Origin: an uncultured Candidatus Saccharibacteria bacterium
Lineage (GTDB): Bacteria; Patescibacteriota; Minisyncoccia; Phycocordibacterales; JAACPR01
Direction of reading: 5' to 3'
NCBI GenBank assembly: GCA_964461185.1
Contig: CAYWTD010000001.1
Location: 1 to 37,077 of the forward strand
DNA: 37,077 bases
Shown here piece by piece: positions 1 to 32,498 of this stretch. The notes under the pieces were generated by a model. That model saw only the letters and a list, made by a program, of their open reading frames with translations. It was not told the DNA's origin and ran no database searches. A program made the position numbers and the translations under genes. Every line of letters begins with the position of its first letter. Position 1 is the stretch's first letter.

Positions 1-539
1 GGACGAACGGTTAAATATAAATTAAATATAAATGTAAGAATGTTTGTGATGACAAAAATAAAAATTAAAAAAACTTTTTGAAAAAATAAATTTGTTTTTA
101 AAAACATATCAAGCATAACTACAGCAAAAAATACTGAGGAAACAATACCGCTGTAAATCTTTCCATGAAAAAAGAAAATTGCAGCTATCGACAAACTGTA
201 AACTAACAAAAAAGGAACAGCGCAATTATTAATTTTGTTTTCGAAATATTTTTTATAATTCACCCACAGCAACATACAAGCAAAAGGCACAGAGATAAAA
301 AACAGCACTTCTTCAACAGGCAGATTTCCAATCAAAAAACCAGTTATGTATTTTTGATTAAAAGACCAAAAATAATTAACAACCAATTCGTCCCAAATCA
401 CAAAAAAAGTTGCGGCAACCAAAATTCCGACGATTAATGCCCGAGGGTTTGGTTTTATTACTTTCCCCTTTCCAAAAATATAAACCAGTAGTGGTCCTAA
501 AATAATTACAATATTAAAAATTAAATATTCGAATATCAT
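1..539 (-). CDS. lycopene cyclase domain-containing membrane protein (partial; C-terminus runs off the window start)
   Basis: Hand translation from ATG 539..537: MIFEYLIFNIVIILGPLLVY...VIWDELVV...GNLPVEEVLFFISVPFACML... It is multi-TM with a PxEE(x)xF motif, as in CrtYc/Yd-type lycopene cyclase domains. The frame stays open to position 1. It is adjacent to a CrtI-family gene. Confidence 0.5.
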   Translation of the reverse strand, partial: MIFEYLIFNIVIILGPLLVYIFGKGKVIKPNPRALIVGILVAATFFVIWDELVVNYFWSFNQKYITGFLIGNLPVEEVLFFISVPFACMLLWVNYKKYFENKINNCAVPFLLVYSLSIAAIFFFHGKIYSGIVSSVFFAVVMLDMFLKTNLFFQKVFLIFIFVITNILTFIFNLYLTVR

Positions 540-4898: not shown

Positions 4899-4924
4899 AG
4901 TGAATAAATTATATCACGGAATCA

Positions 4925-13234: not shown

Positions 13235-13633
13235 TTACTCTCTTTTAATAGAAGAAATATTTATAGGATTTATAGAATCTAAATGAATATTCAGTCCGGC
13301 ATATGTTTCATCGGATAAAATTTCTACAAAAATCTCTCTTTGCGTTTCGTCGACATAGACAACTTCGTACGAACATTCTCTATCATCCAAATAAACACTA
13401 TCAGTCCCAACAAATAAATTATTATTTTTTATCTCAAGCAGAGCCATTTCAGTGCAAGCATCAAGTAAAAATTCTTTTTTTGTATTAGTGCTTTCTCTCT
13501 GACTTTTAACAACAGAAAATAGTCCGTCCATCGATATCAAAGCCGCAAAAGACAACAATACGCCGCCAATAATTATGACAACAATCAATGTTGAGAAACC
13601 TTTTTCGTTTTTTATAAAATTTATTTTTTTCAT
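13235..13633 (-). CDS. pseudopilin/minor pilin-like protein
   Basis: 132 aa. N-terminal KGFSTLIVVIIIGGVLL is a degenerate prepilin-type hydrophobic helix. Its start overlaps the upstream gene's stop by 4 nt (13630-13633). Confidence 0.55.
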   Translation of the reverse strand: MKKINFIKNEKGFSTLIVVIIIGGVLLSFAALISMDGLFSVVKSQRESTNTKKEFLLDACTEMALLEIKNNNLFVGTDSVYLDDRECSYEVVYVDETQREIFVEILSDETYAGLNIHLDSINPINISSIKRE

Positions 13634-14138: not shown

Positions 14139-14597
14139 TTAAATTTCTGGATCAATTTCACCGCGCCAATTTGTCAGATAAGTTTGCGCGGAAAATATAT
14201 TTTCATCGGAAACAGAATCGGACCAAGTAATTGTGACAAAAATAAATTTCTGGTCATTATTAAAATCAGCTATTTGTACGCTTCTTTCAAAAAATCCAAC
14301 TTCGTCGGGCGAATCAGCCAAAGCCCATTTGCCAGCATTTGCCGACAAACCAAATTCTCCATTATTCAAACCAGAAAAATCTGCGTCTCTAATATTTTTT
14401 ACAATCTCTAAAGATTCATTCGCCAAAATGCCGGCTTGGTCAATATTTGCAGAATGGATAATTTGTTTAAAGGAATAATTTGCAATATTTAAAACTGTAA
14501 CAACAAAAATCATAAACAACGAAATTGAAATAATAATTTCTAAAATCGAAAAACCTGTTTTATTTCTTTTTAAACTTTTATTATTGTTTATCATCAC
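14139..14597 (-). CDS. pseudopilin/minor pilin-like protein
   Basis: 152 aa. N-terminal KTGFSILEIIISISLFMIF. The track start is GTG at 14597. The next codon, ATG at 14594, is an alternative start. Confidence 0.65.
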   Translation of the reverse strand: MMINNNKSLKRNKTGFSILEIIISISLFMIFVVTVLNIANYSFKQIIHSANIDQAGILANESLEIVKNIRDADFSGLNNGEFGLSANAGKWALADSPDEVGFFERSVQIADFNNDQKFIFVTITWSDSVSDENIFSAQTYLTNWRGEIDPEI

Positions 14598-14709: not shown

Positions 14710-15798
14710 TTAAAAAACCAAGCCTAGATTTATTTGCTTTAATAAATATTCCAGAGATATATAGTTTTTTGGTTCAATAATGTTTATCCCCGTATTTTTT
14801 ACAATATTTGCGCTTGTATTAATTATGAAAGTGCCCTCTTCACTGTTAAGAACACTGGCGTAATCAACCCTTTCAATTTCGCTTTTCTTGTTAATATAAT
14901 AAGAGATATCAAAATAACCATCAATTTCATTCGCAAAATCTGTATTGTCATCAATCACATCAGAAAACCCTGCCCATTCTGGTATTTCGTTACCAAGTTC
15001 CTTGATCGAAGACATAAAAGCCACAGTAAAATCTTTTAGATCGTATTTATATGAAATTTTTAATCCAATATTTGTTTTTTCACGTTTGACAATTGGTTTT
15101 GCATCTTCAACAATAACCGCGATTATTTTTTCTTCAACAATTTTTTTCTGCTCTGCAGTAAGTTCAATTTTTTCTTGATTGGGTAAATTAATAAACGCAG
15201 CTGAATTAACAATAAAATCATTACTAATTTTTATCCATGTGTTCAATCTATTTGCAGGAACAAACATTGCAACCATGCTTGGTAGTTTATTTATCTTGGC
15301 GAAAAAATCAGAACCAATAGAAATTGTCTCAAGATTTACAGAAAAATCACATTTGTTGATTTGATTTAAACCCGGATTTGACTGTGGCATGCCTAAAAAC
15401 ACCGGTGAAAAATCTATATCACCAATTGATAAGTGAGTATTAAAAGTATTGTTATCTTTCATTTCTCCAATATCAAATTTCACAGGTATAGTTATTTCGA
15501 ATTCTCCAACATTTACCTGATTAACGTCCGGCTTTGCCTCAATGTTTACTGTAGCATCGACGGTAAACTGACCTTCACTAAGAATTTTTTGAGTATTAAC
15601 ATAGGCGGTTTTTGTAACATCCACATTGCTCTTCAAAAGAAAAGGATTAAAAAATGTTGCGTAGGCGAAAAACCCTCCACCTAAAATTATAATGGCCGCT
15701 AATAATATAACTGCAACTAAAAATTTCTTTGATCCACCTTTCTCCACGACGACAGGCTCTTCATTAATAATTACTTGATTATTATTTTGTTCATCCAT
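14710..15798 (-). CDS. hypothetical membrane-anchored protein
   Basis: The track ORF starts at TTG 15819. The ATG at 15798 (MDEQNNNQ...) lies 9 nt after a TATAAT box (15813..15808), so that start is preferred. One TM segment (FLVAVILLAAIIILGGGFFAYA) precedes a large extracytoplasmic part. Confidence 0.6.
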   Translation of the reverse strand: MDEQNNNQVIINEEPVVVEKGGSKKFLVAVILLAAIIILGGGFFAYATFFNPFLLKSNVDVTKTAYVNTQKILSEGQFTVDATVNIEAKPDVNQVNVGEFEITIPVKFDIGEMKDNNTFNTHLSIGDIDFSPVFLGMPQSNPGLNQINKCDFSVNLETISIGSDFFAKINKLPSMVAMFVPANRLNTWIKISNDFIVNSAAFINLPNQEKIELTAEQKKIVEEKIIAVIVEDAKPIVKREKTNIGLKISYKYDLKDFTVAFMSSIKELGNEIPEWAGFSDVIDDNTDFANEIDGYFDISYYINKKSEIERVDYASVLNSEEGTFIINTSANIVKNTGINIIEPKNYISLEYLLKQINLGLVF

Positions 15799-15868
15799 AA
15801 TCAAAATATTATATAACAATAGTTATTTAAATAATACTATGGAACAAAAGTTACCGCGCAAAAAAAGA

Positions 15869-16033
15869 TTATTTTACTTTCCTAGACGAAACGGTTTTTC
15901 CTATAAATAAACCTACTAGGAAAATAATTGCTCCGATTACAGCAAACAAATAAATTTTGTCTTGATTAAAGAAGTTGCTCAAAAAATTATTCTTTCCGGC
16001 GGCTTCGTTATTATTGTCATCCTCAACTGTCAT
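15869..16033 (-). CDS. possible small (54 aa) single-TM protein at the distal edge of the repeat array
   Basis: Hand translation gives MTVEDDNNNEAAGKNNFLSNFFNQDKIYLFAVIGAIIFLVGLFIGKTVSSRKVK*. It is below the track cutoff. Confidence 0.3.
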   Translation of the reverse strand: MTVEDDNNNEAAGKNNFLSNFFNQDKIYLFAVIGAIIFLVGLFIGKTVSSRKVK

Positions 16034-16148
16034 TTTATCTGGGATACCATCTGCTTCATAAACAATTAAAGTGTGTTTATTTGGTTGTATTGGAGAAATT
16101 GTTTTAAAAATAAAAAAGCTTCATTCGGAACCGGCTCTTTATTTTAAT

Positions 16149-16177
16149 GCGCGCTTTCGTGGACGTTGTTGGAACTA
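16149..16177. repeat. 29-bp array repeat R1 (GCGCGCTTTCGTGGACGTTGTTGGAACTA, exact)
   Basis: Direct reading of the plus strand. It is one of 7 same-orientation copies. Confidence 0.95.
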
Positions 16178-16224
16178 GGATTTCAGAAACAATCACTACA
16201 TCATCTTAAAAAAGATGGTTCGAT

Positions 16225-16980
16225 CTAAAACGCAGGCATGTTCCACTGTTTCAAATCATCAATCGCTATCCTCTTATAAGAGAATTTCCCTGTACTTAAT
16301 GAATTCTTACAAACAGTAATCACTTTACCGGTCGCCATATCACTACCATCACCTTTTTGGGAAAATTTAGTACTGACCACTACCCAACCGTCTTCCATCT
16401 CCCCAGAAGATCTCTTGATTTTGACTATTAAGGGGGTTCTTTTCATAAGTTCATCCTCTAGATTTAAGGGATTTAAACGATCTTCTATATATTCTTGGGC
16501 TGCTAATTTTAATTCTGAAATATAATTTCTACCATGTCTTACCGCATCTGTAAAAGTCTTTTTTAATGGTTCAGGAATATTGTGTATCTTATCTTTAAAC
16601 TCATCAACAATCTGTCCAGTTACTTGCATATGCTCAACGATGCTTCTTAATCTAAGGACTATTTGCCGCCCGGCTTCATATCTATCTGGCTGTTCTATGG
16701 ATCCCCTATTTAAAGACTTTTCACGATATTCCGTGTAAAGAGCCAGATCATCTCCCGATAACACATCTTGTGCAACGGCATCAGAAATTTCAATACTAAT
16801 ATTTTGTAATTCATTGAAGAATTTTTGGCGAACACCATCACCCCAAGTGGCTTCTGAGTGGGTGTTTTTTATATTGCCGACCAATACGGACGATTCCTTA
16901 AAGTAGTCATCAAATGTCCCCACCATGATCTCTTCACCATTTTCAACTCTGGATTGATGCTTTGGATGTTCAATTCCCAT
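16225..16980 (-). CDS. hypothetical protein (cassette 1), no recognisable domain
   Basis: 251-aa ORF with ATG at 16980, downstream of a TTGACA-18-TAGAAT promoter. No signal peptide or TM. Confidence 0.6.
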   Translation of the reverse strand: MGIEHPKHQSRVENGEEIMVGTFDDYFKESSVLVGNIKNTHSEATWGDGVRQKFFNELQNISIEISDAVAQDVLSGDDLALYTEYREKSLNRGSIEQPDRYEAGRQIVLRLRSIVEHMQVTGQIVDEFKDKIHNIPEPLKKTFTDAVRHGRNYISELKLAAQEYIEDRLNPLNLEDELMKRTPLIVKIKRSSGEMEDGWVVVSTKFSQKGDGSDMATGKVITVCKNSLSTGKFSYKRIAIDDLKQWNMPAF

Positions 16981-17007
16981 GTTTTTTATCTAATTAATGT
17001 TACCATG

Positions 17008-17037
17008 ATTCTATCACGCACGTGGCACATCTGTCAA
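17008..17037 (-). promoter_or_regulatory. promoter of cassette 1 (TTGACA-18 nt-TGATAGAAT)
   Basis: Minus strand has TTGACA at 17037..17032. The extended -10, TGATAGAAT, ends at 17008, 27 nt before ATG 16980. Confidence 0.55.
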
Positions 17038-17061
17038 ACAAAAAATTTGTCCGTTGAAACC

Positions 17062-17092
17062 AAAAACACCCCTGTTTACAAAGGTGTTTTTA
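17062..17092 (-). terminator. hairpin terminator downstream of cassette 2 and repeat R2
   Basis: AAAACACC (17063-17070) pairs with GGTGTTTT (17083-17090), flanked by A and T runs. The shape is bidirectional. Confidence 0.5.
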
Positions 17093-17118
17093 TTGTTTGG
17101 AACATTTCTGTCCCGACT

Positions 17119-17147
17119 GCGCGCTTTCGTGGACGTTGTTGGAACTA
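17119..17147. repeat. 29-bp array repeat R2 (exact)
   Basis: Direct reading. Its terminal CTA (17145-17147) is the TAG stop of CDS 17145..17933. Confidence 0.95.
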
Positions 17148-17933
17148 TTGTCTTCCCGTGCAATGATATCCTTTGCCGCCTTCCTTGTTAAGAGTGGTTA
17201 AATCTAGAGTGACATGTTCGTCAATGCCTGCACCCAAGCCAAATCCACTATACTCAGAAAATTCCGGGCAGTTATCCTCTGTGGCCACAATGTCTGTGGG
17301 GCTCCAATAGCTAATGATATTATTCTTGATAGATAAAAATTTTGAATATGAATCATTAAAAATTTTTTTTCTTGATACAAGATCATAGACTCCAAGACCA
17401 CGTGGCGGTGGACCAGTACCAGAATCAGTTATCAAGAAATCGCCCTCAAGGGCCCTCACATATTCGGCGAATTTATTAGATAAAACAAAGTCGTTGTCAT
17501 TTTCAACATATTTGCAAGGATATTCTTGATCTATCTCTGTTTTATATTTGATCAAAATATTTGTACCCACACTGTCTACAAGATCTTCTCTAATTACAAA
17601 GTATTTATCATTGCTTACACAATCAGATTCGTATAGTCGATCATCTAGTCTGCATCTATTGAACGTTGTGTAATCGGGGGTAATATTTTGACCTCCATTT
17701 GCCATACACCATTCGAAAGCATCAATTTCTGTTTTATCAAGACGCTCTTCATCACTTATAAAAGCATTTTCCTCATGCTGATTAATATTATCTGGTTTTT
17801 GGGGAAGAAGTATACCGCCCGATCTGTTATCAAAAATGAAACCGTATTTTTTAGTTAAATAATATCCGCCGCTGATAATTAATAAACAGATAATAATAAT
17901 TAAAATTATCAGGGGCCCTTTGTTTATTTTCAT
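17145..17933 (-). CDS. hypothetical secreted or membrane-anchored protein (cassette 2)
   Basis: The track ORF begins at TTG 17939. The ATG at 17933 (MKINKGPLIILIIIICLLIISGGYYL...) lies 6 nt after TGGTAGAAT. It has an N-terminal signal anchor and several Cys residues. Confidence 0.65.
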   Translation of the reverse strand: MKINKGPLIILIIIICLLIISGGYYLTKKYGFIFDNRSGGILLPQKPDNINQHEENAFISDEERLDKTEIDAFEWCMANGGQNITPDYTTFNRCRLDDRLYESDCVSNDKYFVIREDLVDSVGTNILIKYKTEIDQEYPCKYVENDNDFVLSNKFAEYVRALEGDFLITDSGTGPPPRGLGVYDLVSRKKIFNDSYSKFLSIKNNIISYWSPTDIVATEDNCPEFSEYSGFGLGAGIDEHVTLDLTTLNKEGGKGYHCTGRQ

Positions 17934-17985
17934 ACACAAATTCTACCACCTTATGTTTAGTACATGAAGTTCATTACATTCATTT
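17934..17985 (-). promoter_or_regulatory. type-II cassette leader with extended -10 TGGTAGAAT (-10 at 17945..17940)
   Basis: Minus strand reads AAATGAATGTAATGAACTTCATGTACTAAACATAAGGTGGTAGAATTTGTGT-ATG. It is similar to the leader at 21321-21371. Confidence 0.55.
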
Positions 17986-18014
17986 GCGCGCTTTCGTGGG
18001 CGTTGTTGGAACTA
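17986..18014. repeat. 29-bp array repeat R3 (1 mismatch, A15G)
   Basis: GCGCGCTTTCGTGGGCGTTGTTGGAACTA. Confidence 0.95.
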
Positions 18015-18050
18015 GTTTTCAATAAATTGTATACTCATTCATAATATATT

Positions 18051-18677
18051 ATGACGAAAGCCAACGACTCTGTCGTAAAATACATAATTAAACACATAAA
18101 AAAACTAGATAGTAAAAAAAGGTTAGTAATAACATTGGATGGTATTAGCGGATGTGGGAAAACTTCAATTTCAAAGAGGGTGGCGGAGTTATTAAAGGAT
18201 GTAACAGTTTTACATGCAGATTATTTTATTTATCCATATTCAAAATTAGTAAAGAAAATAGAAAAATTTGAGAATAATTATAGTATTTTATATGAAAAAA
18301 ACTGGTATGAGACAAAAAATTTGTTAAGCGTGGTTAACTCTTTTTTAAAAGGTACAAAGAACTCATATATATACAAACCAAAAAGGTATACAAAGAACAA
18401 GGAAATAGAAATTAATCTCACTAATAGAATACTTATAGTAGAGGGGTGTTTTGTCTCTCATGATGATTTACTGGGACAAATTTCTGATAGTAAAATATTT
18501 CTATCACTACCAAAGGATAGTGTTGTCAGCAGAAGAAAAAAACGTCGAATTATTAGAGGTCTTGGGGAAAAAAGATCTCTACTATCTCCTCATTTCCATA
18601 AGGCATATAAACACTATACGGAAGTATACAAAATTAGCTCAAAATCTAACCTGCATATATTAATGAATCCAAAATAA
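18051..18677 (+). CDS. P-loop nucleoside/nucleotide kinase-like protein (cassette 3, inverted relative to the other cassettes)
   Basis: 208 aa with Walker A LDGISGCGKTSISKRV. The size and layout resemble uridine kinase/PRK-family small kinases. This is a family-level guess only. Confidence 0.55.
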   Translation: MTKANDSVVKYIIKHIKKLDSKKRLVITLDGISGCGKTSISKRVAELLKDVTVLHADYFIYPYSKLVKKIEKFENNYSILYEKNWYETKNLLSVVNSFLKGTKNSYIYKPKRYTKNKEIEINLTNRILIVEGCFVSHDDLLGQISDSKIFLSLPKDSVVSRRKKRRIIRGLGEKRSLLSPHFHKAYKHYTEVYKISSKSNLHILMNPK

Positions 18678-18719
18678 CAATCTGGTATAATCTGCATTAT
18701 TATTAGATAAATAAAAAAT

Positions 18720-18845
18720 ATGGAAGAAATAAAACTGCCTGTAGATAACGATTCCGCTGCAGCTGAAGAGATGAAGGAAGAGCCGACATCAATAGGTGAT
18801 CTCACAACAATCCAGCCAGAAGATAGAGAAGCTGAACAAGCCTAA
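18720..18845 (+). CDS. possible 41-aa highly acidic peptide
   Basis: Hand translation gives MEEIKLPVDNDSAAAEEMKEEPTSIGDLTTIQPEDREAEQA*. It is followed immediately by a strong terminator and is below the track cutoff. Confidence 0.3.
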   Translation: MEEIKLPVDNDSAAAEEMKEEPTSIGDLTTIQPEDREAEQA

Positions 18846-18852
18846 CCGTTAA

Positions 18853-18880
18853 AAAAGAACTCCAAAAGGAGTTCTTTTTA
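18853..18880 (+). terminator. rho-independent terminator ending cassette 3
   Basis: AAGAACTCC-AAAA-GGAGTTCTT followed by a T run (18855-18879). Confidence 0.7.
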
Positions 18881-18885
18881 AATTT

Positions 18886-18914
18886 GCGCGCTTTCGTAGA
18901 CGTTGTTGGAACTA
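18886..18914. repeat. 29-bp array repeat R4 (1 mismatch, G13A)
   Basis: GCGCGCTTTCGTAGACGTTGTTGGAACTA. Confidence 0.95.
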
Positions 18915-18930
18915 AAATTAATCCAGCAAT

Positions 18931-19809
18931 CTACAGGTCAACTAATTTATCAAGGTTTTTTATTTCATCAACGGTTATAAAGTGTATATCTGGATAGGCT
19001 GATTTCAAGGCATTAATGGCTGACTCATATTGGCGCGGAACTAATACGGCCAAAAGGTTTTCTAAACCAAAATCCCTTCCAGGACTTCCAATCAACATAA
19101 AACCTTCGTGTTTAGCAGAATAACCCAGACCAGAGAGTTGTTTTTCCTCTTCCACACCTTCGCCTTCGGGAATATAAAACGATCCCCAAAACTGGCCTCG
19201 AAAATCATTTTTCAATGCTACCTTTAGTCTTTTAAAATCATCCACAACGTCTGGTCCAAGTACCCCCTCCAAACCACGCGCTGGTAGATTTCTCGCAAAA
19301 TCTTTATCAAGTTGCTGTGCTTCACGAATAAAATCTTCGTGCTGAGTTCCTGGCAACACCTCTCCTTTCTTTGCCCTAAAATACATATTATCTATTACTT
19401 TCTGGAGATTGTCCGTGCCATTTTGAGATTTATTACTTTCATCAAAACCAAGACTCGTATTTGTTTCGCCGGCTTCTGGTGTTTGATCATTAAGTGCGGC
19501 TAACTTTTGCCTGACCTTATCTAGTTCTTTAACTCTGGAAATTTCTCCCTCTCTAATCAACACGGATTCAGACTCTCTCTTTCTCAAAAAATCTAAAATT
19601 TTTTGTCTTCTTTGTTTTTCCGCCTCGGTCTTTTCTTGATCAATATATATTTTTGGTACCCAAAGTTGTTCAACTATTTCAGAGGATAATCCATCATACT
19701 GAGCTGGAACACGAATCTCTTCTTCCTGTGATGGCAAATCATTTATGTTAGAACTGCCGTCTCCAGATAACTCAGTATCATCTATTGATAAATTTACCTC
19801 TTCTTTCAT
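18931..19809 (-). CDS. hypothetical protein (cassette 4), acidic N-terminal half
   Basis: 292-aa ORF with ATG at 19809, 9 nt after TGGTAGAAT. No recognisable motif. Confidence 0.6.
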   Translation of the reverse strand: MKEEVNLSIDDTELSGDGSSNINDLPSQEEEIRVPAQYDGLSSEIVEQLWVPKIYIDQEKTEAEKQRRQKILDFLRKRESESVLIREGEISRVKELDKVRQKLAALNDQTPEAGETNTSLGFDESNKSQNGTDNLQKVIDNMYFRAKKGEVLPGTQHEDFIREAQQLDKDFARNLPARGLEGVLGPDVVDDFKRLKVALKNDFRGQFWGSFYIPEGEGVEEEKQLSGLGYSAKHEGFMLIGSPGRDFGLENLLAVLVPRQYESAINALKSAYPDIHFITVDEIKNLDKLVDL

Positions 19810-19818
19810 TACAATATA

Positions 19819-19887
19819 ATTCTACCACAGTTCCAAATCCCTTCCTCCGTTGAGATTTCAGCGGCTTAAATTAAGCTTCAAATGTTT
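19819..19887 (-). promoter_or_regulatory. type-I cassette leader module, copy A (extended -10 TGGTAGAAT plus about 60 nt conserved upstream sequence)
   Basis: Plus strand reads ATTCTACCACAGTTCCAAATCCCTTCCTCCGTTGAGATTTCAGCGGCTTAAATTAAGCTTCAAATGTTT. It is near-identical to 21043-21111 and 23312-23380. Confidence 0.6.
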
Positions 19888-19916
19888 GCGCGCTTTCGTG
19901 GACGTTGTTGGAACTG
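19888..19916. repeat. 29-bp array repeat R5 (last base G instead of A)
   Basis: GCGCGCTTTCGTGGACGTTGTTGGAACTG. Confidence 0.95.
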
Positions 19917-19948
19917 AGTTGTGGAGAAATAAAACTTGTTTGTGATAA

Positions 19949-19983
19949 GAAAAAGGAGCTCACAGTCAAACCATGAGCTCCTC
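19949..19983 (-). terminator. rho-independent terminator ending cassette 5
   Basis: On the minus strand GGAGCTCA-11 nt-TGAGCTCC is followed by TTTTTC. The stems are at 19955-19962 and 19974-19981. Confidence 0.7.
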
Positions 19984-19995
19984 AAGAAATAATAA

Positions 19996-20295
19996 TTATG
20001 AACCAATCTTCTTAACCGTCATGGACGGATATTCACTACAATTAGGACATCCAAATCCAAATATGTATTGCTTACAACTAACAAAATCATCCACTGTTAG
20101 ATTCGTATCATCTCTGATATTCACCAACACAAGAACATCTGCTAGCTGCTTGCGATCAAGTTCTAAAATTACTCCACACGATGAGCAATACAAATACGCG
20201 ACTGAATCAGGATTATCAAATGGCTTGCTTGCCAAATCGGTTGGCAGGGTTTTACTTGAACCACATGTGCCAAAAAAATTTGATTGTATGTCCAT
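19996..20295 (-). CDS. hypothetical small protein with two CxxC pairs (zinc-ribbon-like), cassette 5 gene 2
   Basis: The start is set at ATG 20295 (MDIQSNFFG...), 6 nt after AGGAGG (20307..20302). Contains CSSCG...and...GCPNC. The plus-strand ORF 19973..20341 is taken as its shadow. Confidence 0.6.
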   Translation of the reverse strand: MDIQSNFFGTCGSSKTLPTDLASKPFDNPDSVAYLYCSSCGVILELDRKQLADVLVLVNIRDDTNLTVDDFVSCKQYIFGFGCPNCSEYPSMTVKKIGS

Positions 20296-20342
20296 GCCTT
20301 TCCTCCTTTCTGTTTTTCTTTCATTAGAATATAACATATAAA

Positions 20343-20990
20343 TTATCTGTCAAGCCTACCAATAATAACCTTTACTATTTTATCCGCCTCTTGCGCCACA
20401 AACAGATCGAAGGAAGTTTGGTCGGTTTTCTGGTCCAACTCCTCAGGAAAGATGGTCACAACATCTGCCTTAGAGGTTTTATTAGGATTTATACTACCAT
20501 CCATTGTTATGAGAATTGTTTTACCAAAAATTGATATATCAAAAAAGGCATCTACTCCATGATACCGATCAGTGGGCGTTTCGACAAAACCATCTTGAGT
20601 AGTTTTTAGCCTGAGATCAGAGCAAGCGGTATAGTACAACACAGAATCATCGTCGACACCAACTCTTGAATCTGGTAAACGTTCTTTTAGGATCTTCAAA
20701 ATCTTCTGACGAAGAAAATAAGCATATGGCTTATCTGGATTTGTTGGTTCAAATTTCCTACAACGCCTGACCAACTCAAAACTCTCTTCACGTTTTAGAT
20801 ATGGAGGGTTCCCTTCCCTTAGTCTCTTCATCGCCTCCACAAATTCAGACTCTAGTTCTGGATTAGACTTGAGTTTATCTTTTAGACTTCTTAGCTCATC
20901 AAGATATTTAGACTGATCAATTAAACCGAAATGTTCATACTCAGCCATTTTCCCGGATTCACCAAAGTGATTTCTAAATCCTCTATACAT
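20343..20990 (-). CDS. hypothetical protein, cassette 5 gene 1
   Basis: 215-aa ORF, about 50 nt downstream of the TGGTATAGT promoter in leader copy B. No recognisable motif. Confidence 0.55.
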   Translation of the reverse strand: MYRGFRNHFGESGKMAEYEHFGLIDQSKYLDELRSLKDKLKSNPELESEFVEAMKRLREGNPPYLKREESFELVRRCRKFEPTNPDKPYAYFLRQKILKILKERLPDSRVGVDDDSVLYYTACSDLRLKTTQDGFVETPTDRYHGVDAFFDISIFGKTILITMDGSINPNKTSKADVVTIFPEELDQKTDQTSFDLFVAQEADKIVKVIIGRLDR

Positions 20991-21042
20991 TGTTTTTTAT
21001 TTTTAATGTTGCTTTAATGTTTTGCAACTTTTTTATAATAAA

Positions 21043-21111
21043 ACTATACCACAGTTCCAAATCCCTTCCACCGTGGAAATTTCGGTAGCCTTAATTAAAC
21101 CTCAAATGTTT
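21043..21111 (-). promoter_or_regulatory. type-I cassette leader module, copy B (extended -10 TGGTATAGT)
   Basis: Plus strand reads ACTATACCACAGTTCCAAATCCCTTCCACCGTGGAAATTTCGGTAGCCTTAATTAAACCTCAAATGTTT. Confidence 0.6.
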
Positions 21112-21140
21112 GCGCGCTTTCGTGGAGGGGGTTGGGGCTA
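21112..21140. repeat. 29-bp array repeat R6 (degenerate; 5 substitutions, all to G)
   Basis: GCGCGCTTTCGTGGAGGGGGTTGGGGCTA. Its terminal CTA is the TAG stop of CDS 21138..21320. Confidence 0.85.
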
Positions 21141-21320
21141 CTTTTTACGTTTACGCACAAACAAGCAAATGATTAGTAGTATCCCGCCAATAATTATTAG
21201 GGGGTAACCAAACCAGATCGCGCCAAAGCCGTACCCGGTACTCATATTTGTTAGAGGACTCCAGAAATATGCAGAAACAATTAATCCAATAATTATTACT
21301 GCCAATGATATTTTTCTCAT
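21138..21320 (-). CDS. small 2-TM membrane protein (cassette 6)
   Basis: 60 aa: MRKISLAVIIIGLIVSAYFW...YPLIIIGGILLIICLFVRKRKK. The ATG lies 6 nt after TGGTAGGAT. The overlapping ORF 21151..21336 is not hydrophobic or coherent and is rejected. Confidence 0.5.
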   Translation of the reverse strand: MRKISLAVIIIGLIVSAYFWSPLTNMSTGYGFGAIWFGYPLIIIGGILLIICLFVRKRKK

Positions 21321-21371
21321 GCCATAATCCTACCACTCTGTGTTAAGTTCACAAAGTTCATTTGGTTCACT
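21321..21371 (-). promoter_or_regulatory. type-II cassette leader with extended -10 TGGTAGGAT
   Basis: Minus strand reads AGTGAACCAAATGAACTTTGTGAACTTAACACAGAGTGGTAGGATTATGGC-ATG. Confidence 0.5.
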
Positions 21372-21400
21372 GCGCGCTTTCGTGGACGTTGTTGGAACTA
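21372..21400. repeat. 29-bp array repeat R7 (exact)
   Basis: Direct reading. Confidence 0.95.
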
Positions 21401-21465
21401 GGGCGCTATAAAAAATAACAAGACAAATTGTTGTATCGTTCTAAGTGTTCCACCAGCTTTTATTT

Positions 21466-23304
21466 CTAGTAATCACACTTCCCGTTGCCCGTAGTGTCAT
21501 AACAATCTACCTCCCCATCATAATTTGTGTCCCACATATTTGGTCTGCCGTTTCCTGTGGTATCGAAACAGTCTGGTTGTTCATCTCCATTTGTATCCCA
21601 CATATTTGGTTTACCCCAATCAGTTTGGTCATTACTGTTCCATGCATCCATTTTCGCATCTCCATCCGTATCAAAATTATCACAATTCCCATTTGAGTTC
21701 GTATCGTAGCAAATTCCATCACCATATAACCACCAATTAATGTTTCTAGAACCAGAGGTTTTGCCCATGTTGCATTCACCATCACTTGTCGTGTCATAAC
21801 AATCTACCTCCCCATCATAATTTGTGTCCCACATATTTGGTCTGCCGTTTCCTGTAGTGTCAAAAGAATCTGCATTTCCGTCGTTATTATTGTCCCAACA
21901 ATCAATTTCTCCGTCGCTGTTACAATCCCAAGAACCAGAAACTTGTTCTCCTGGGTTTTCAAAATCTATTTTAATTCCGTAGATATCATATCCTCCGTAA
22001 TACCATTTGGGGGTTGGTTTATCTTTCAACCCAACCGGTCCGCCAGATAACAGATATTCCTTATAGAAAGTGAGATACAAGTCAAGAGGATTTAAATAAC
22101 CTTCGGGTGTAGAAAGAATTCTTACTTCAGGATTGGTCTGAATAATATTATCTTGCACAACAGTATCAACATCATAATTACTTGGTACAGAGTATAACGC
22201 CTCTTCTTCTGTCCATTTAACACCATCGGCAGAACTTCTTGTAATTATCGAATCAGTTTCTTTATCAAAATAGAAAGTTTTAAAAATTTTCTCTGAGGGA
22301 ACGTATTTTACGTCAAACTGGTTGAATACATTCGTTAATCCTGCAGCATCGGTCAGTCTGTTTGAATATGAATTTTCAAAATCTGTCGGGTCATTACTTT
22401 TAGAAACCATTTGATAGGGTATTTGTTCTTCAGCCGAACGATTGTATTTATAAATATTTCCTTCAGGGTCAGTCCAAACTAGAAAATAAGTCGTATCTAC
22501 GTAATACAAATATATATTTTCACCATCTGTCGTTACTCTTGGGATTCCCGCTCCATAAAGTTCTAAGTACGGATTTCCGTATCCTACAGAAGTAAAGTAA
22601 TTGTCATTTATATAATCGTGTCCAGCCAAACTTAATATATTTGACTCCAAAACTGGTTTATAAGAATATTCTGTAGGAGAATTCTTCCACCCCTCATCAG
22701 TTAATATTTTAAATGGACCTTCTGGATTTCTAGATCGAGCCACAAATATGGACAAAATCTTGCTTGGATCTGTATATGATTCAAAATATAAATAATAATA
22801 ACCTTCAAAATAGACAATTGCGTTTCCACATCCGCCTTGTGCCAAATCACTCTGACCATTTTCTCTTGAAGCTTCAATGATTATCTCTGCTGGAGACCAA
22901 TTTTCTCCATTATCGTCGGAATATTGATACCTTATTTTATCAGTTTCATATTCTGCGGTTTTTCTCCAGTCGGGTGCTGACCCAGAATCAAAAGGCTCTC
23001 CTGATGAACAATAGTATATGTGAATTCTTCCAGATTCATCTCGGATTGAGTTATGTAAATGTGCATAGTAACTTCCTCCTTCTCTAGCATCTATCCATTT
23101 TCCTTGATCTATAATTTCCCCTTCAGAAAAATTGATATTTTCATCTTCATTTGGGGAAATGTCCGCTTTTGCCAATAACGATAAATTGTTATTGAAAATA
23201 TTGCTTGAATAATTAAAAGTGAAATCGTTTTTATTTTCTTTGGCAATAAAAAATATTGCAACAAAAACAACTGATATAAATATCGGTAAAATGTATTTTT
23301 TCAT
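21466..23304 (-). CDS. secreted protein: Asp-box/beta-propeller-like N-terminal domain plus C-terminal Asp-rich calcium-binding-type repeats (cassette 7)
   Basis: 612 aa. Signal peptide MKKYILPIFISVVFVAIFFIA. SDDNGENWS matches the Asp-box pattern SxDxGxxW. The C-terminus carries repeated DTNxDGxxDCxDTT units (TTGNGRPNMWDTNYDGEVDCYDTT twice). Confidence 0.7.
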   Translation of the reverse strand: MKKYILPIFISVVFVAIFFIAKENKNDFTFNYSSNIFNNNLSLLAKADISPNEDENINFSEGEIIDQGKWIDAREGGSYYAHLHNSIRDESGRIHIYYCSSGEPFDSGSAPDWRKTAEYETDKIRYQYSDDNGENWSPAEIIIEASRENGQSDLAQGGCGNAIVYFEGYYYLYFESYTDPSKILSIFVARSRNPEGPFKILTDEGWKNSPTEYSYKPVLESNILSLAGHDYINDNYFTSVGYGNPYLELYGAGIPRVTTDGENIYLYYVDTTYFLVWTDPEGNIYKYNRSAEEQIPYQMVSKSNDPTDFENSYSNRLTDAAGLTNVFNQFDVKYVPSEKIFKTFYFDKETDSIITRSSADGVKWTEEEALYSVPSNYDVDTVVQDNIIQTNPEVRILSTPEGYLNPLDLYLTFYKEYLLSGGPVGLKDKPTPKWYYGGYDIYGIKIDFENPGEQVSGSWDCNSDGEIDCWDNNNDGNADSFDTTGNGRPNMWDTNYDGEVDCYDTTSDGECNMGKTSGSRNINWWLYGDGICYDTNSNGNCDNFDTDGDAKMDAWNSNDQTDWGKPNMWDTNGDEQPDCFDTTGNGRPNMWDTNYDGEVDCYDTTGNGKCDY

Positions 23305-23311
23305 ATACCAA

Positions 23312-23380
23312 ATTCTACCACAGTTCCAAATCCATTCCTCCGTCGGAATTTCGGTGGCTTTAATTAAGCTTCAAATGTTT
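23312..23380 (-). promoter_or_regulatory. type-I cassette leader module, copy C, abutting the 3' end of tRNA-Asp
   Basis: Plus strand reads ATTCTACCACAGTTCCAAATCCATTCCTCCGTCGGAATTTCGGTGGCTTTAATTAAGCTTCAAATGTTT, followed by GCGCG, which is the tRNA 3' end. Confidence 0.6.
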
Positions 23381-23381
23381 G

Positions 23382-23455
23382 CGCGAGTGATGGGACTTGA
23401 ACCCACGACCTTCCGCGTGACAGGCGGACGCTCTAACCAGCTGAGCTACACCCGC
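23382..23455 (-). tRNA. tRNA-Asp (anticodon GUC), no encoded CCA
   Basis: Minus strand reads GCGGGTG-TA-GCTC-AGCTGGTTA-GAGC-G-TCCGC-CTGTCAC-GCGGA-AGGTC-GTGGG-TTCAAGT-CCCAT-CACTCGC-G. Confidence 0.9.
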
Positions 23456-23541: not shown

Positions 23542-23763
23542 TCACCAGACATTTTGTCCTGGCGGTTTGCAACGGTTGATGCCTTTAAAGAATTTCTTCT
23601 TTTCAGAATTTCTGAATTCCAGACGATGCCGTTCACAAAGATGATTCGGATCATTCGACGTCCTGCAGATGCAACAAAGCTCTCGCCCTTTTGCATCAAG
23701 TTGCAGAGTCAAATCACCCAAATCAAGTCCAAGGCTTCTCGTCATGTCCTTGGGCTTCATCAT
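23542..23763 (-). CDS. small Cys/His-motif protein, paralog 2 (73 aa)
   Basis: The start is set at ATG 23763..23761, which overlaps the upstream stop as TGATG. Sequence: MMKPKDM...ELCCICRTSNDPNHLCERHRLEF... The motif CxxC-x7-HxxCxxH-x3-F is shared with the upstream gene. Confidence 0.55.
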   Translation of the reverse strand: MMKPKDMTRSLGLDLGDLTLQLDAKGRELCCICRTSNDPNHLCERHRLEFRNSEKKKFFKGINRCKPPGQNVW

Positions 23764-24029
23764 CAGGCCTGCCGTTTCCGTTGCTCTTTCTCGAACGCCC
23801 GGCGGTGACCAGTGCAAAGGCCGTGAGTGGTATCGTCACCACAAGCGTAGCACGGACGATCACCGTAACCATCGTCATCCGATGCGCCCCGATCTTCCGC
23901 GACAACGGTCTTTTGATTATCCGGCAAGGGTTGAGTCTGACCCCGTTTTGCTGTATCAATACTCAATCCCCAAGGAGTGTTGATCATTGAGAACAAAGCT
24001 AGTTGGCCAGCAATATCTTTTTCCTTCAT
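23763..24029 (-). CDS. small Cys/His-motif protein, paralog 1 (88 aa)
   Basis: MKEKDIAG...RPCYACGDDTTHGLCTGHRRAFEKEQRKRQA*. An SD-like AGAGG lies 8 nt upstream and TGTGATATAAT further upstream. Several overlapping plus-strand ORFs are taken as GC-driven shadows. Confidence 0.55.
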   Translation of the reverse strand: MKEKDIAGQLALFSMINTPWGLSIDTAKRGQTQPLPDNQKTVVAEDRGASDDDGYGDRPCYACGDDTTHGLCTGHRRAFEKEQRKRQA

Positions 24030-32467: not shown

Positions 32468-32498
32468 TAATCAATTATACCAAATTAGTTTTTAATTT

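Follow-up and report, generated by a model that had tools for sequence, protein, structure and literature searches.

The 37,077-nt window analyzed here (contig CAYWTD010000001.1 of the Candidatus Saccharibacteria assembly GCA_964461185.1) carries, beside a tRNA-Asp gene, an array of small gene units separated by a short direct repeat that we call R. Seven copies of R (29/30 nt), all in the same orientation, split positions 16149 to 23381 into seven units, and the array adjoins the 3′ end of the tRNA (Table 1). The plus-strand 29-mer GCGCGCTTTCGTGGACGTTGTTGGAACTA has six matches, three of them exact and three with one mismatch, where the expectation from shuffled sequences is 0; the seventh copy, at 21112, is degenerate, with five mismatches. 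The distances from start to start are 970, 867, 900, 1002, 1224, and 260 bp. The tRNA and most of the genes in the units, which we call cassettes, lie on the minus strand, and in that direction R reads TAGTTCCAACAACGTCCACGAAAGCGCGC. A unit begins with a short 5′ module, F (a terminator, a host-type promoter, or both), goes on with one or two genes, and ends with a closing R of 30 nt. One unit, 18015 to 18885, is coded on the opposite strand, and the repeats that bound it keep their orientation. An initial annotation, made from the sequence alone, had described the same-orientation repeats with their positions, mismatches, and spacings, the minus-strand tRNA-Asp whose 3′ end faces the array, and the inverted unit, and we could reproduce all of these. 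The feature is genuine and reaches beyond this window, being conserved in a lineage of Saccharibacteria; of the arrays that we have seen, that of the window is the largest and best preserved.

R is a sharply bounded motif that tends to lie close behind genes. In most units, in the window and in the loci of relatives, it directly adjoins the stop codon of the gene before it or overlaps that codon: it starts 0 to 80 nt, usually 0 to 30 nt, past the stop. Behind it there is often the hairpin of an intrinsic terminator, and then comes the promoter of the next gene, at a variable distance. The alignment of 37 nonredundant instances from 13 loci gave the consensus Y-AGTTCCAACA-n-C-G-TCCAC-nnnnn-CGCGC-A, that is, YAGTTCCAACA-n-CGTCCAC-nnnnn-CGCGC-A in the direction of tRNA-Asp. 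The motif spans 30 nt, and its information content falls to background within 1 to 2 bases on the outside, except for an A three bases upstream that is present in 86% of the instances. Positions 20 to 24 are variable (GAAAG, TAGCC, GAACC, and GAGCC), partly by genome, and two direct half-sites, GTTCCAAC and GTCCAC, lie 11 nt apart within the motif. R is C-rich and unstructured as RNA, being less structured than its shuffled versions. Its conservation is unusual. The 29-mer is 100% identical between the window and one relative, L002 (we give L numbers to the loci of relatives), in which GatA is only 65% and a 339-aa marker protein 42% identical, and the tRNA-Asp genes of these two genomes differ at several positions. 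Hence, a short noncoding repeat is better conserved between genomes than the adjacent tRNA itself, which implies a conserved trans-acting factor that reads it. Two simpler identities for R were tried and rejected. It could have been the start of a plus-strand peptide (M/L-RAFVDVVGT...), but the tails vary in length and sequence and the start codons are missing in several copies. It could also have been a known RNA or terminator, but R has no structure and no Rfam match under gathering and E-value thresholds, in the window or in nine other loci.

How widespread are such arrays? We scanned the GTDB representative genomes, metagenome contigs, and IMG/VR for exact patterns of R. Exact copies occur in three GTDB representative metagenome-assembled genomes labelled Candidatus Saccharibacteria and in seven metagenome contigs, with one exact copy per stretch. 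We then compared syntenic 21-kb loci, fetched with the 339-aa protein encoded beside the tRNAs as marker (71% down to 42% identity). Most relatives have the same core order, with pilins, LigA, GatCA, the 339-aa gene, two tRNA-Met, a small core gene, and tRNA-Asp, and the stretch behind tRNA-Asp is different in every genome. R is present at this locus in at least 10 other Saccharibacteria-type genomes, in 1 to 7 copies, and nearly every gene of the variable stretch in relatives has an R behind it. In one genome, L027, the marker gene has moved away, and the gene next after tRNA-Asp still has R behind it. L014, the nearest relative for which there is a long contig, carries about 6 kb of other genes at the same locus and no R. 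Outside the variable stretch 3′ of tRNA-Asp we found no R, neither at the approximately 35 core genes of the window nor in the loci of relatives, where R-like motifs always follow the orientation of the tRNA. The exception is L001, where R adjoins a 22-nt fragment of tRNA-Asp rather than the whole gene, and this fragment heads a small array between an MraY-like gene and ftsW. A repeat scattered over the genome, which the initial annotation had considered as an alternative, is not what these data show. The same holds for repetitive extragenic palindromic sequences and bacterial interspersed mosaic elements (REP/BIME), which we rejected: R is not palindromic and, in the window and the loci of relatives, is confined to the variable region of tRNA-Asp.

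The genes of the arrays are renewed completely between relatives. The core flanks are the same, and the genes between them are entirely different: by BLASTP, no cassette protein is common to the genomes compared (window, L001, L002, L007, L014, and L015). The cargo consists of strain-specific accessory genes. In the window these are orphans, secreted or membrane proteins, and a kinase; in relatives they include RelB/YafQ, a CopG-type antitoxin, GNAT, Fic, major facilitator superfamily (MFS), serine hydrolase, 2′-5′ RNA ligase, and VanY proteins. Some units hold very little. In L001 (positions 1062 to 1183, the same as L010:7303-7424), two R sites, one exact and one with eight mismatches, lie 93 nt apart with a terminator hairpin alone between them, which makes this an empty cassette. 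L017 has a 219-nt unit without an open reading frame (ORF) between the R sites at 13619 and 13838.

Since R follows genes so closely, could it be a signal for their expression rather than a site of recombination? It might act as a 3′ untranslated region (UTR) element or insulator, or be bound by a conserved protein, for instance one that silences foreign genes, or be a factor-dependent terminator or an RNA-processing site, and the array would then be a tRNA-linked insertion hotspot in which all the genes bear this signal. The position of R in the 3′ UTR, usually ahead of an intrinsic-terminator hairpin, fits this explanation, as do its C-rich, unstructured RNA and its direct half-sites, spaced as in tandem-dimer binding sites. 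On the other strand, its TTGGAA block is usable as a −35 box, in R copy 5 for the plus-strand kinase gene. Yet an expression signal would not be expected to be missing from all the core genes of the window and of every 21-kb relative locus. Neither would it be expected to keep its direction at the inverted cassette, so that it comes to lie upstream of the gene there, or to stand at variable distances from stop codons and promoters. Together with the lack of an Rfam match and the exchange of R for the end of a tRNA described below, which this explanation leaves unaccounted for, these points make it unlikely in our view. The statement of the initial annotation that the repeat marks the boundaries of units holds.

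The evidence for recombination is indirect and comes from the junctions. The 3′ flank of tRNA-Asp is homologous to the 3′ flank of some R copies, and this homology begins directly after a common CGCGC. In five genomes, the sequence that follows tRNA-Asp is also found after R copies. In the window, about 80 nt past the tRNA (23302-23380) recur behind the R copies at 19888 and 21112, and this family (D3) has 73 to 83% identity over about 100 nt. Two R copies of L007 have behind them, at 87 to 88% identity, the sequence that flanks a tRNA-Asp 3′ fragment. The sequence TAGACCAAAAA, with a terminator and a further element, lies behind both the tRNA and one R copy in L017, and the same is true of ATTAACTTGCGGCAAGTT in L022. 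In L019, ATTAAAATAAAG lies behind both a tRNA-Asp 3′ copy and an R copy, and the same flank is found behind the most distal R of the window; the distal flank of the window is hence a candidate for the ancestral chromosomal flank. Finally, one module of about 85 nt, F_A, stands behind an R copy, an intact tRNA, or a 22-nt tRNA fragment in an alignment of four genomes (A3). Because homology after the tRNA and after R starts at the same CGCGC, R and the tRNA-Asp 3′ end behave as interchangeable left halves of one recombination junction. This is the pattern expected from recombination between a site composed of tRNA and F and another composed of R and F. Judging from the short fragments of the tRNA-Asp 3′ end that lie at or within arrays (see below), this end is very probably a real recombination point, and we propose it as the partner of R, comparable to attI or attB.

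Do R and the tRNA share more than the junction? Aligned from the right without gaps, the tRNA tail and R have GTCC-N7-CGCGCA in common, and R scores higher with tRNA-Asp (17) than with the other five tRNAs of the window (10 to 14). The overall similarity is not significant (p about 0.09 against shuffles); the idea that R is a diverged copy of the tRNA-Asp tail was dropped, and we keep the top score among six tRNAs as a hint only. Genuine copies of the tRNA end exist in relatives: fragments of 19 to 22 nt from the tRNA-Asp 3′ end, starting in the T-loop, head arrays or lie inside them in L001, L002, L007, L017, and L019. Such fragments, and the GTTC..AA, GTCC, and CGCGCA blocks shared by R and the tRNA tail, could mean that the arrays are decayed remnants of integrase-carrying islands that integrated serially at tRNA-Asp, with R as a diverged attR and the integrases deleted. 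We regard this as very unlikely, since no integrase or fragment of one was found in any of about 40 units at 13 loci, the units measure 0.1 to 2 kb with one or two genes, the similarity between R and the tRNA tail is not significant, and R is more conserved than the tRNA between genomes, the opposite of decay.

We propose that the cassette array is of an integron-like type, in which a recombinase encoded elsewhere in the genome inserts units one after another, site-specifically, at the tRNA-Asp 3′ end, a reading to which we give about an even chance. Units would arrive as circles composed of F, the gene or genes, and R. The R-F junction of such a circle would recombine with the tRNA-Asp 3′ end and its flank (...GTCC-N7-CGCGC|A...), with the crossover presumably at or beside the common CGCGC(A). 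The tRNA would be left intact and keep accepting units, so that the array would grow from the tRNA end, with the newest unit beside the tRNA. Earlier junctions would persist as R followed by the F module of the older neighbor, and the most distal R would be followed by the original chromosomal flank. The orientation of genes within a unit would be unconstrained, which would explain the inverted kinase unit. Since the recombinase is absent from the cassettes and from the locus, it would have to act in trans, as IntI or XerCD do. More tentatively, and somewhat short of an even chance, this Saccharibacteria lineage could possess an undescribed gene-capture system, in which an unlinked host recombinase inserts promoter-bearing single-gene circles at tRNA-Asp through recombination between R and the tRNA tail.

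Several results weigh against this proposal and should be kept in mind. R has no dyad symmetry, which is usual in the core sites of tyrosine and serine recombinases, and it forms no hairpin, folding no better than its shuffles (z, +1.0 to +1.3). Its overall similarity to the tRNA-Asp tail, as said, is not significant. Two pattern scans for R on the viral contigs of IMG/VR gave 0 matches. Around the 13 arrays, to a distance of about 10 kb, we found no recombinase save an IS256-type transposase in L024; for L015, L017, L019, L021, L022, L024, and L027 the check was a Pfam annotation of the genes called within 10 kb or less. Between close strains we saw neither insertion/deletion polymorphism with breakpoints at R nor a circular junction: near-identical strains have identical arrays or contigs that stop before the array, contigs with an identical 339-aa protein end inside the tRNA-Met gene, and the L024 variants differ only at the IS256-type insertion. 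(This element, of the IS256 family [Transposase_mut], lies inside the R array at L024:14339-15565 and in L025, and contigs of the same species diverge or end there.) The recombination-assembled array proposed in the initial annotation gains support from the comparison with relatives, without any excision or insertion variant, circular junction, or recombinase having turned up. The statement of that annotation that the 37 kb encode no integrase or recombinase holds: no recombinase domain came up in a Pfam scan of the window's non-nested ORFs of 90 aa or more, which covered all of them but one (132 aa, 13235-13633).

The F modules raise a further difficulty, since several of them are common to a number of genomes, and homologous exchange could account for part of the junction pattern. 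In its full form, this alternative holds that R and the F modules (30 to 115 bp) are homology handles for the RecA-dependent exchange of incoming DNA, with no dedicated recombinase and with gene conversion keeping R uniform. It fits with the lack of a recombinase near any array, with the conservation of R plus F_A over about 115 bp in four genomes, and with the recurrence of the F_B and F_C modules in several genomes. Genes for a type IV competence pilus (pilin and prepilin peptidase) lie on either side of the locus, and the variants at R positions 20 to 24 tend to cluster by genome, as concerted evolution predicts. Even so, we find it rather unlikely. Conservation stops abruptly at both edges of the 30-nt motif, many R copies have no conserved F module alongside, and 30 bp is a marginal length for RecA. 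Moreover, homologous exchange does not explain how the tRNA 3′ end, which has only GTCC-N7-CGCGCA in common with R, replaces it at the same junction, why 19- to 22-nt tRNA fragments head the arrays, or why R is identical between genomes whose core proteins are 42 to 65% identical.

If our proposal of site-specific capture is correct, how does it compare with known systems? The closest likeness is to integrons and to clusters of attC sites lacking integron-integrases (CALIN). These share with our arrays the one-directional succession of small units of one or two genes, a recombination-type site that closes the unit and abuts or overlaps the stop codon, a cargo of orphans, toxin-antitoxin pairs, and acetyltransferases with complete turnover between relatives, a fixed entry point at one end, and cassettes without a recombinase. 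The integron core site is RYYYAAC/GTTRRRY, and the R block TTCCAAC and the inverted TTTGGAA of F_A are each one base off. There are important differences. The attC sites are imperfect palindromes of 57 to 141 nt (R″-L″...L′-R′) that fold as single strands, whereas R is linear and asymmetric and measures 30 nt. The cassettes of integrons have no promoters and depend on Pc for their expression, whereas the cassettes here have their own promoters and there is no Pc. No intI lies beside any of our arrays, the place of attI is taken by the 3′ end of a tRNA gene, and the host belongs to the candidate phyla radiation (CPR), in a Saccharibacteria lineage. We tested for attC-type folding by hand, comparing single-stranded DNA and RNA folds with those of shuffled sequences. 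R with its F modules, folded as single-stranded DNA of both strands, gave z values from −1.7 to +1.1, and the only pairing was a terminal one of 7 to 9 bp (AGTTCCAA/TTGGAACT), confined to F_A-type modules. We rejected an attC or hairpin identity, in agreement with the initial annotation.

Other mobile systems resemble the arrays in part. The Xer/pdif modules of Acinetobacter plasmids and the integrative mobile elements exploiting Xer (IMEX) likewise have small modules, including toxin-antitoxin pairs, with conserved sites of 28 to 30 bp and a host recombinase encoded elsewhere. Yet R lacks the 11-6-11 inverted XerC/XerD arms, all its copies point in the same direction instead of alternating, and its partner site is a tRNA 3′ end. 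The dif/IMEX identity was rejected for lack of dyad symmetry and because GC skew keeps one sign across the window, with no switch; the view that the repeat is not dif-like was thus borne out. Tandem tRNA islands have the tRNA 3′ anchor, the intact tRNA, and the same-direction junction repeats, and the relatives hold genuine 19- to 22-nt duplications of the tRNA-Asp 3′ end that start in the T-loop. Unlike these islands, which measure 10 to 100 kb, our units measure 0.1 to 2 kb and have no integrase, and R is not a copy of the tRNA 3′ segment and is better conserved than the tRNA. Williams, in 2002, is said to have classified the sublocations of integration within tRNA genes (T-loop or 3′ end). 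The minimal mobile elements of Neisseria are cassettes between conserved genes that are exchanged by transformation. They resemble our arrays in having variable genes between conserved flanks, probable DNA uptake, and no mobility gene, but they have no internal boundary repeat or tRNA anchor, whereas here R is on every unit. Clustered regularly interspaced short palindromic repeats (CRISPR), with repeats of 23 to 50 nt and noncoding spacers of 20 to 70 nt, were rejected because the intervals here span 230 to 2000 nt, code for proteins, and have their own promoters. We found no account of arrays of this kind in full-text searches of PubMed Central and bioRxiv. These comparisons set the array apart from integrons and CALIN, dif modules, classical tRNA islands, REP, and CRISPR.

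The genomes of Saccharibacteria and of CPR bacteria in general are very small and are thought to hold few mobile elements. These organisms live on other bacteria, and how they gain the strain-specific genes that likely decide host range and immunity is poorly understood. The locus is conserved and easily recognized and its content is fully renewed, which would make it a natural place to seek such genes. If the wider proposal is true, it would be the functional equivalent of attI × attC recombination with unrelated sites, and the locus would be the main store of strain-specific genes in genomes of <1 Mb that are otherwise poor in mobile elements. Confirmation of the mechanism would reveal, beside the integron and unrelated to it, a second way of capturing genes singly at one fixed position. 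The 30-nt R and the tRNA-Asp target could even become an integration tool for the few transformable Saccharibacteria.

Table 1. Features of the R array in the window, with the numbers of R copies at the loci of relatives
Feature	Coordinates	Strand	Remarks
tRNA-Asp (GTC)	23381..23455	-	3′ end (...GTCCCATCACTCGCGC|A) faces the array
Module F_A	23302..23380	-	Directly 3′ of tRNA-Asp; small hairpin and GGATTTGGAACTGTGGTAGAAT promoter
612-aa cassette gene	21466..23304	-	Secreted; weak BNR match; internal duplication
R copy 1	21372..21400	-	Exact; closes 612-aa cassette
Module F_B (AGTGAACCAAATGAACTTTGTGAAC...TGGTAGGAT)	21321..21371	-	3′ of R copy 1; promoter of 60-aa ORF; family D6
60-aa cassette ORF	21138..21320	-	Hydrophobic
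R copy 2	21112..21140	-	5 mismatches; its TAG is the stop of the 60-aa ORF (21138)
Module F_A copy	21033..21111	-	Directly 3′ of R copy 2; promoter region of 215-aa gene; family D3, 83%
Two-gene cassette	19996..20990	-	215 aa (20343-20990) and 113 aa (19996-20337)
R copy 3	19888..19916	-	1 mismatch; closes 215-aa and 113-aa cassette
Module F_A copy	19809..19887	-	Directly 3′ of R copy 3; promoter of 292-aa gene; family D3
292-aa cassette gene	18931..19809	-	Orphan by profile search
R copy 4	18886..18914	-	1 mismatch; closes 292-aa cassette
Inverted cassette	18051..18845	+	208-aa protein (18051-18677) and 41-aa acidic ORF (18720-18845)
R copy 5	17986..18014	-	1 mismatch; bounds inverted kinase cassette
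Module F_B copy	17924..17985	-	3′ of R copy 5; promoter of 264-aa gene; family D6
264-aa cassette gene	17145..17939	-	Signal anchor; weak DUF5092 match
R copy 6	17119..17147	-	Exact; its TAG is the stop of the 264-aa ORF (17145)
251-aa cassette gene	16225..16980	-	Orphan
R copy 7	16149..16177	-	Exact; most distal; followed by ATTAAAATAAAG... and a weak hairpin
Remainder of variable interval, without R	14710..16148	-	54-aa ORF and 369-aa ORF
Locus L002			3 R copies (mismatches allowed)
Locus L007			3 R copies (mismatches allowed)
Locus L015			5 R copies
Locus L017			4 R copies
Locus L019			7 R copies
Locus L021			1 R copy
Locus L022			2 R copies
Locus L024			4 R copies
Locus L027			1 R copy

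The products of the window's cassettes are mostly unlike known proteins. Pfam, NCBIfam, and PADLOC recognize only the fold of the 208-aa protein, which profile searches place among PRK/uridine-kinase-like P-loop proteins, and, weakly, the BNR and DUF5092 matches given in Table 1. A defense role of the cargo was considered and rejected, as PADLOC gave a weak kinase-type match only. No homologue of the 251-aa protein was found among 5.8 billion proteins, and a search of 1.84 billion cluster representatives gave only four relatives of the 292-aa protein with scores below 1e-30. The 113-aa ORF has a marginal zinc-ribbon match only (E 0.06), and the terminator hairpin of its two-gene cassette lies at 19953-19983. 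The relatives of the 612-aa protein have at most 48% identity, and at least two of them are in other CPR lineages, the closest being in an unrelated str-operon context in another CPR lineage. Its gene contains a duplication of 110 nt (21491-21600 and 21788-21897; 85% identity, copies 297 bp apart) that corresponds to repeated Asp-rich, calcium-binding-like segments. Exact-protein look-ups of the 612-aa and 369-aa proteins found neither on record, and the 54-aa and 369-aa ORFs have no counterparts by BLASTP in the variable intervals of L014 and L015. Most of the earlier product descriptions agree with ours, among them the kinase-like protein and the orphans; the 612-aa protein retains a weak BNR match only, and the weak DUF5092 match of the 264-aa protein is new. 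The ORF list also stands, save that a different choice of start codons makes two proteins 264 instead of 262 aa and 113 instead of 99 aa long.

The cassettes seem to rely on the expression signals of the host. An extended −10 box (TGnTAnAAT) lies upstream of at least four cassette genes, 6 to 9 nt before the ATG in three of them; in the 612-aa gene, the ATG lies 7 nt past the −10 box of F_A. The box of the 251-aa gene is farther upstream, at 17016, for an ATG at 16980. The core genes at 32482 and 4916 have the same TGnTAnAAT layout, and hence we suggest that cassettes use host-type, nearly leaderless signals. The earlier claim that each unit has its own promoter can be upheld for at least four units by this motif. 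A generic scan for sigma-70 promoters and terminators gave counts that were not above chance, and promoter claims must therefore rest on the conserved extended −10 box. The five boxes at 4916, 17948, 19827, 23320, and 32482, all on the minus strand and in both core and cassette genes, lie 6 to 9 nt before the ATG with no Shine-Dalgarno sequence, so that mRNAs with little or no leader may be frequent in this genome. As for the modules themselves, the F_B at 21321-21371 is homologous to the one at 17924-17985 and to an R flank at L015:12751. In F_A (window:19818-19920, alignment A3), an invariant TTTGGAAC lies just upstream of the −10 box. It is an inverted copy of the R block GTTCCAA about 95 nt off, too near the −10 box for a normal −35, and it may be a second, putative binding site of the factor that reads R.

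The neighbors of the array are core genes and include SecA, two type IV pilin clusters, LigA, GatCA, MurI, Alr, RF, and FtsEX, and a conserved pilin trio begins at 14597. The array had been thought richer in G+C than its flanks, which holds weakly: its G+C content (0.34 to 0.40) exceeds that of the pilin-operon side (0.29 to 0.31) and overlaps that of the other side (0.35 to 0.37). The most G+C-rich stretch of the window (0.42 to 0.43) is 23542-24029, on the minus strand, at the small core gene between tRNA-Met and tRNA-Asp. This gene encodes 154 to 167 aa in relatives, and in the window two overlapping ORFs in different frames, of 88 and 91 aa, stand in its place, and each of them matches a part of the protein of the relatives; this could reflect a frameshift, a pseudogene, or a sequencing error. 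In L021 (11570-12241), its position between tRNA-Met and tRNA-Asp is taken by a 223-aa ORF with a faint LAGLIDADG match.

Finally, the loci of four relatives contain an element, which we call X, that is not in the window. It is a G+C-rich, noncoding sequence of about 170 nt, the last 19 nt of which copy the 3′ end of the local tRNA-Asp (L019:12398-12580, L017:12152-12292, L007:1559-1748 on the minus strand, and L002:4778-4956), and a second, truncated copy lies behind an R site in L017. It has no Rfam or ARAGORN match. The junction with the tRNA copy is always TGTGAC|C(A/G)AGTCCC. The 5′ part of the element pairs and covaries with its tRNA copy, and a second helix (GGTCGC.../...GTGACC) has compensatory changes. 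Element X might be a small RNA that resembles a tRNA, or else a miniature element that has integrated.

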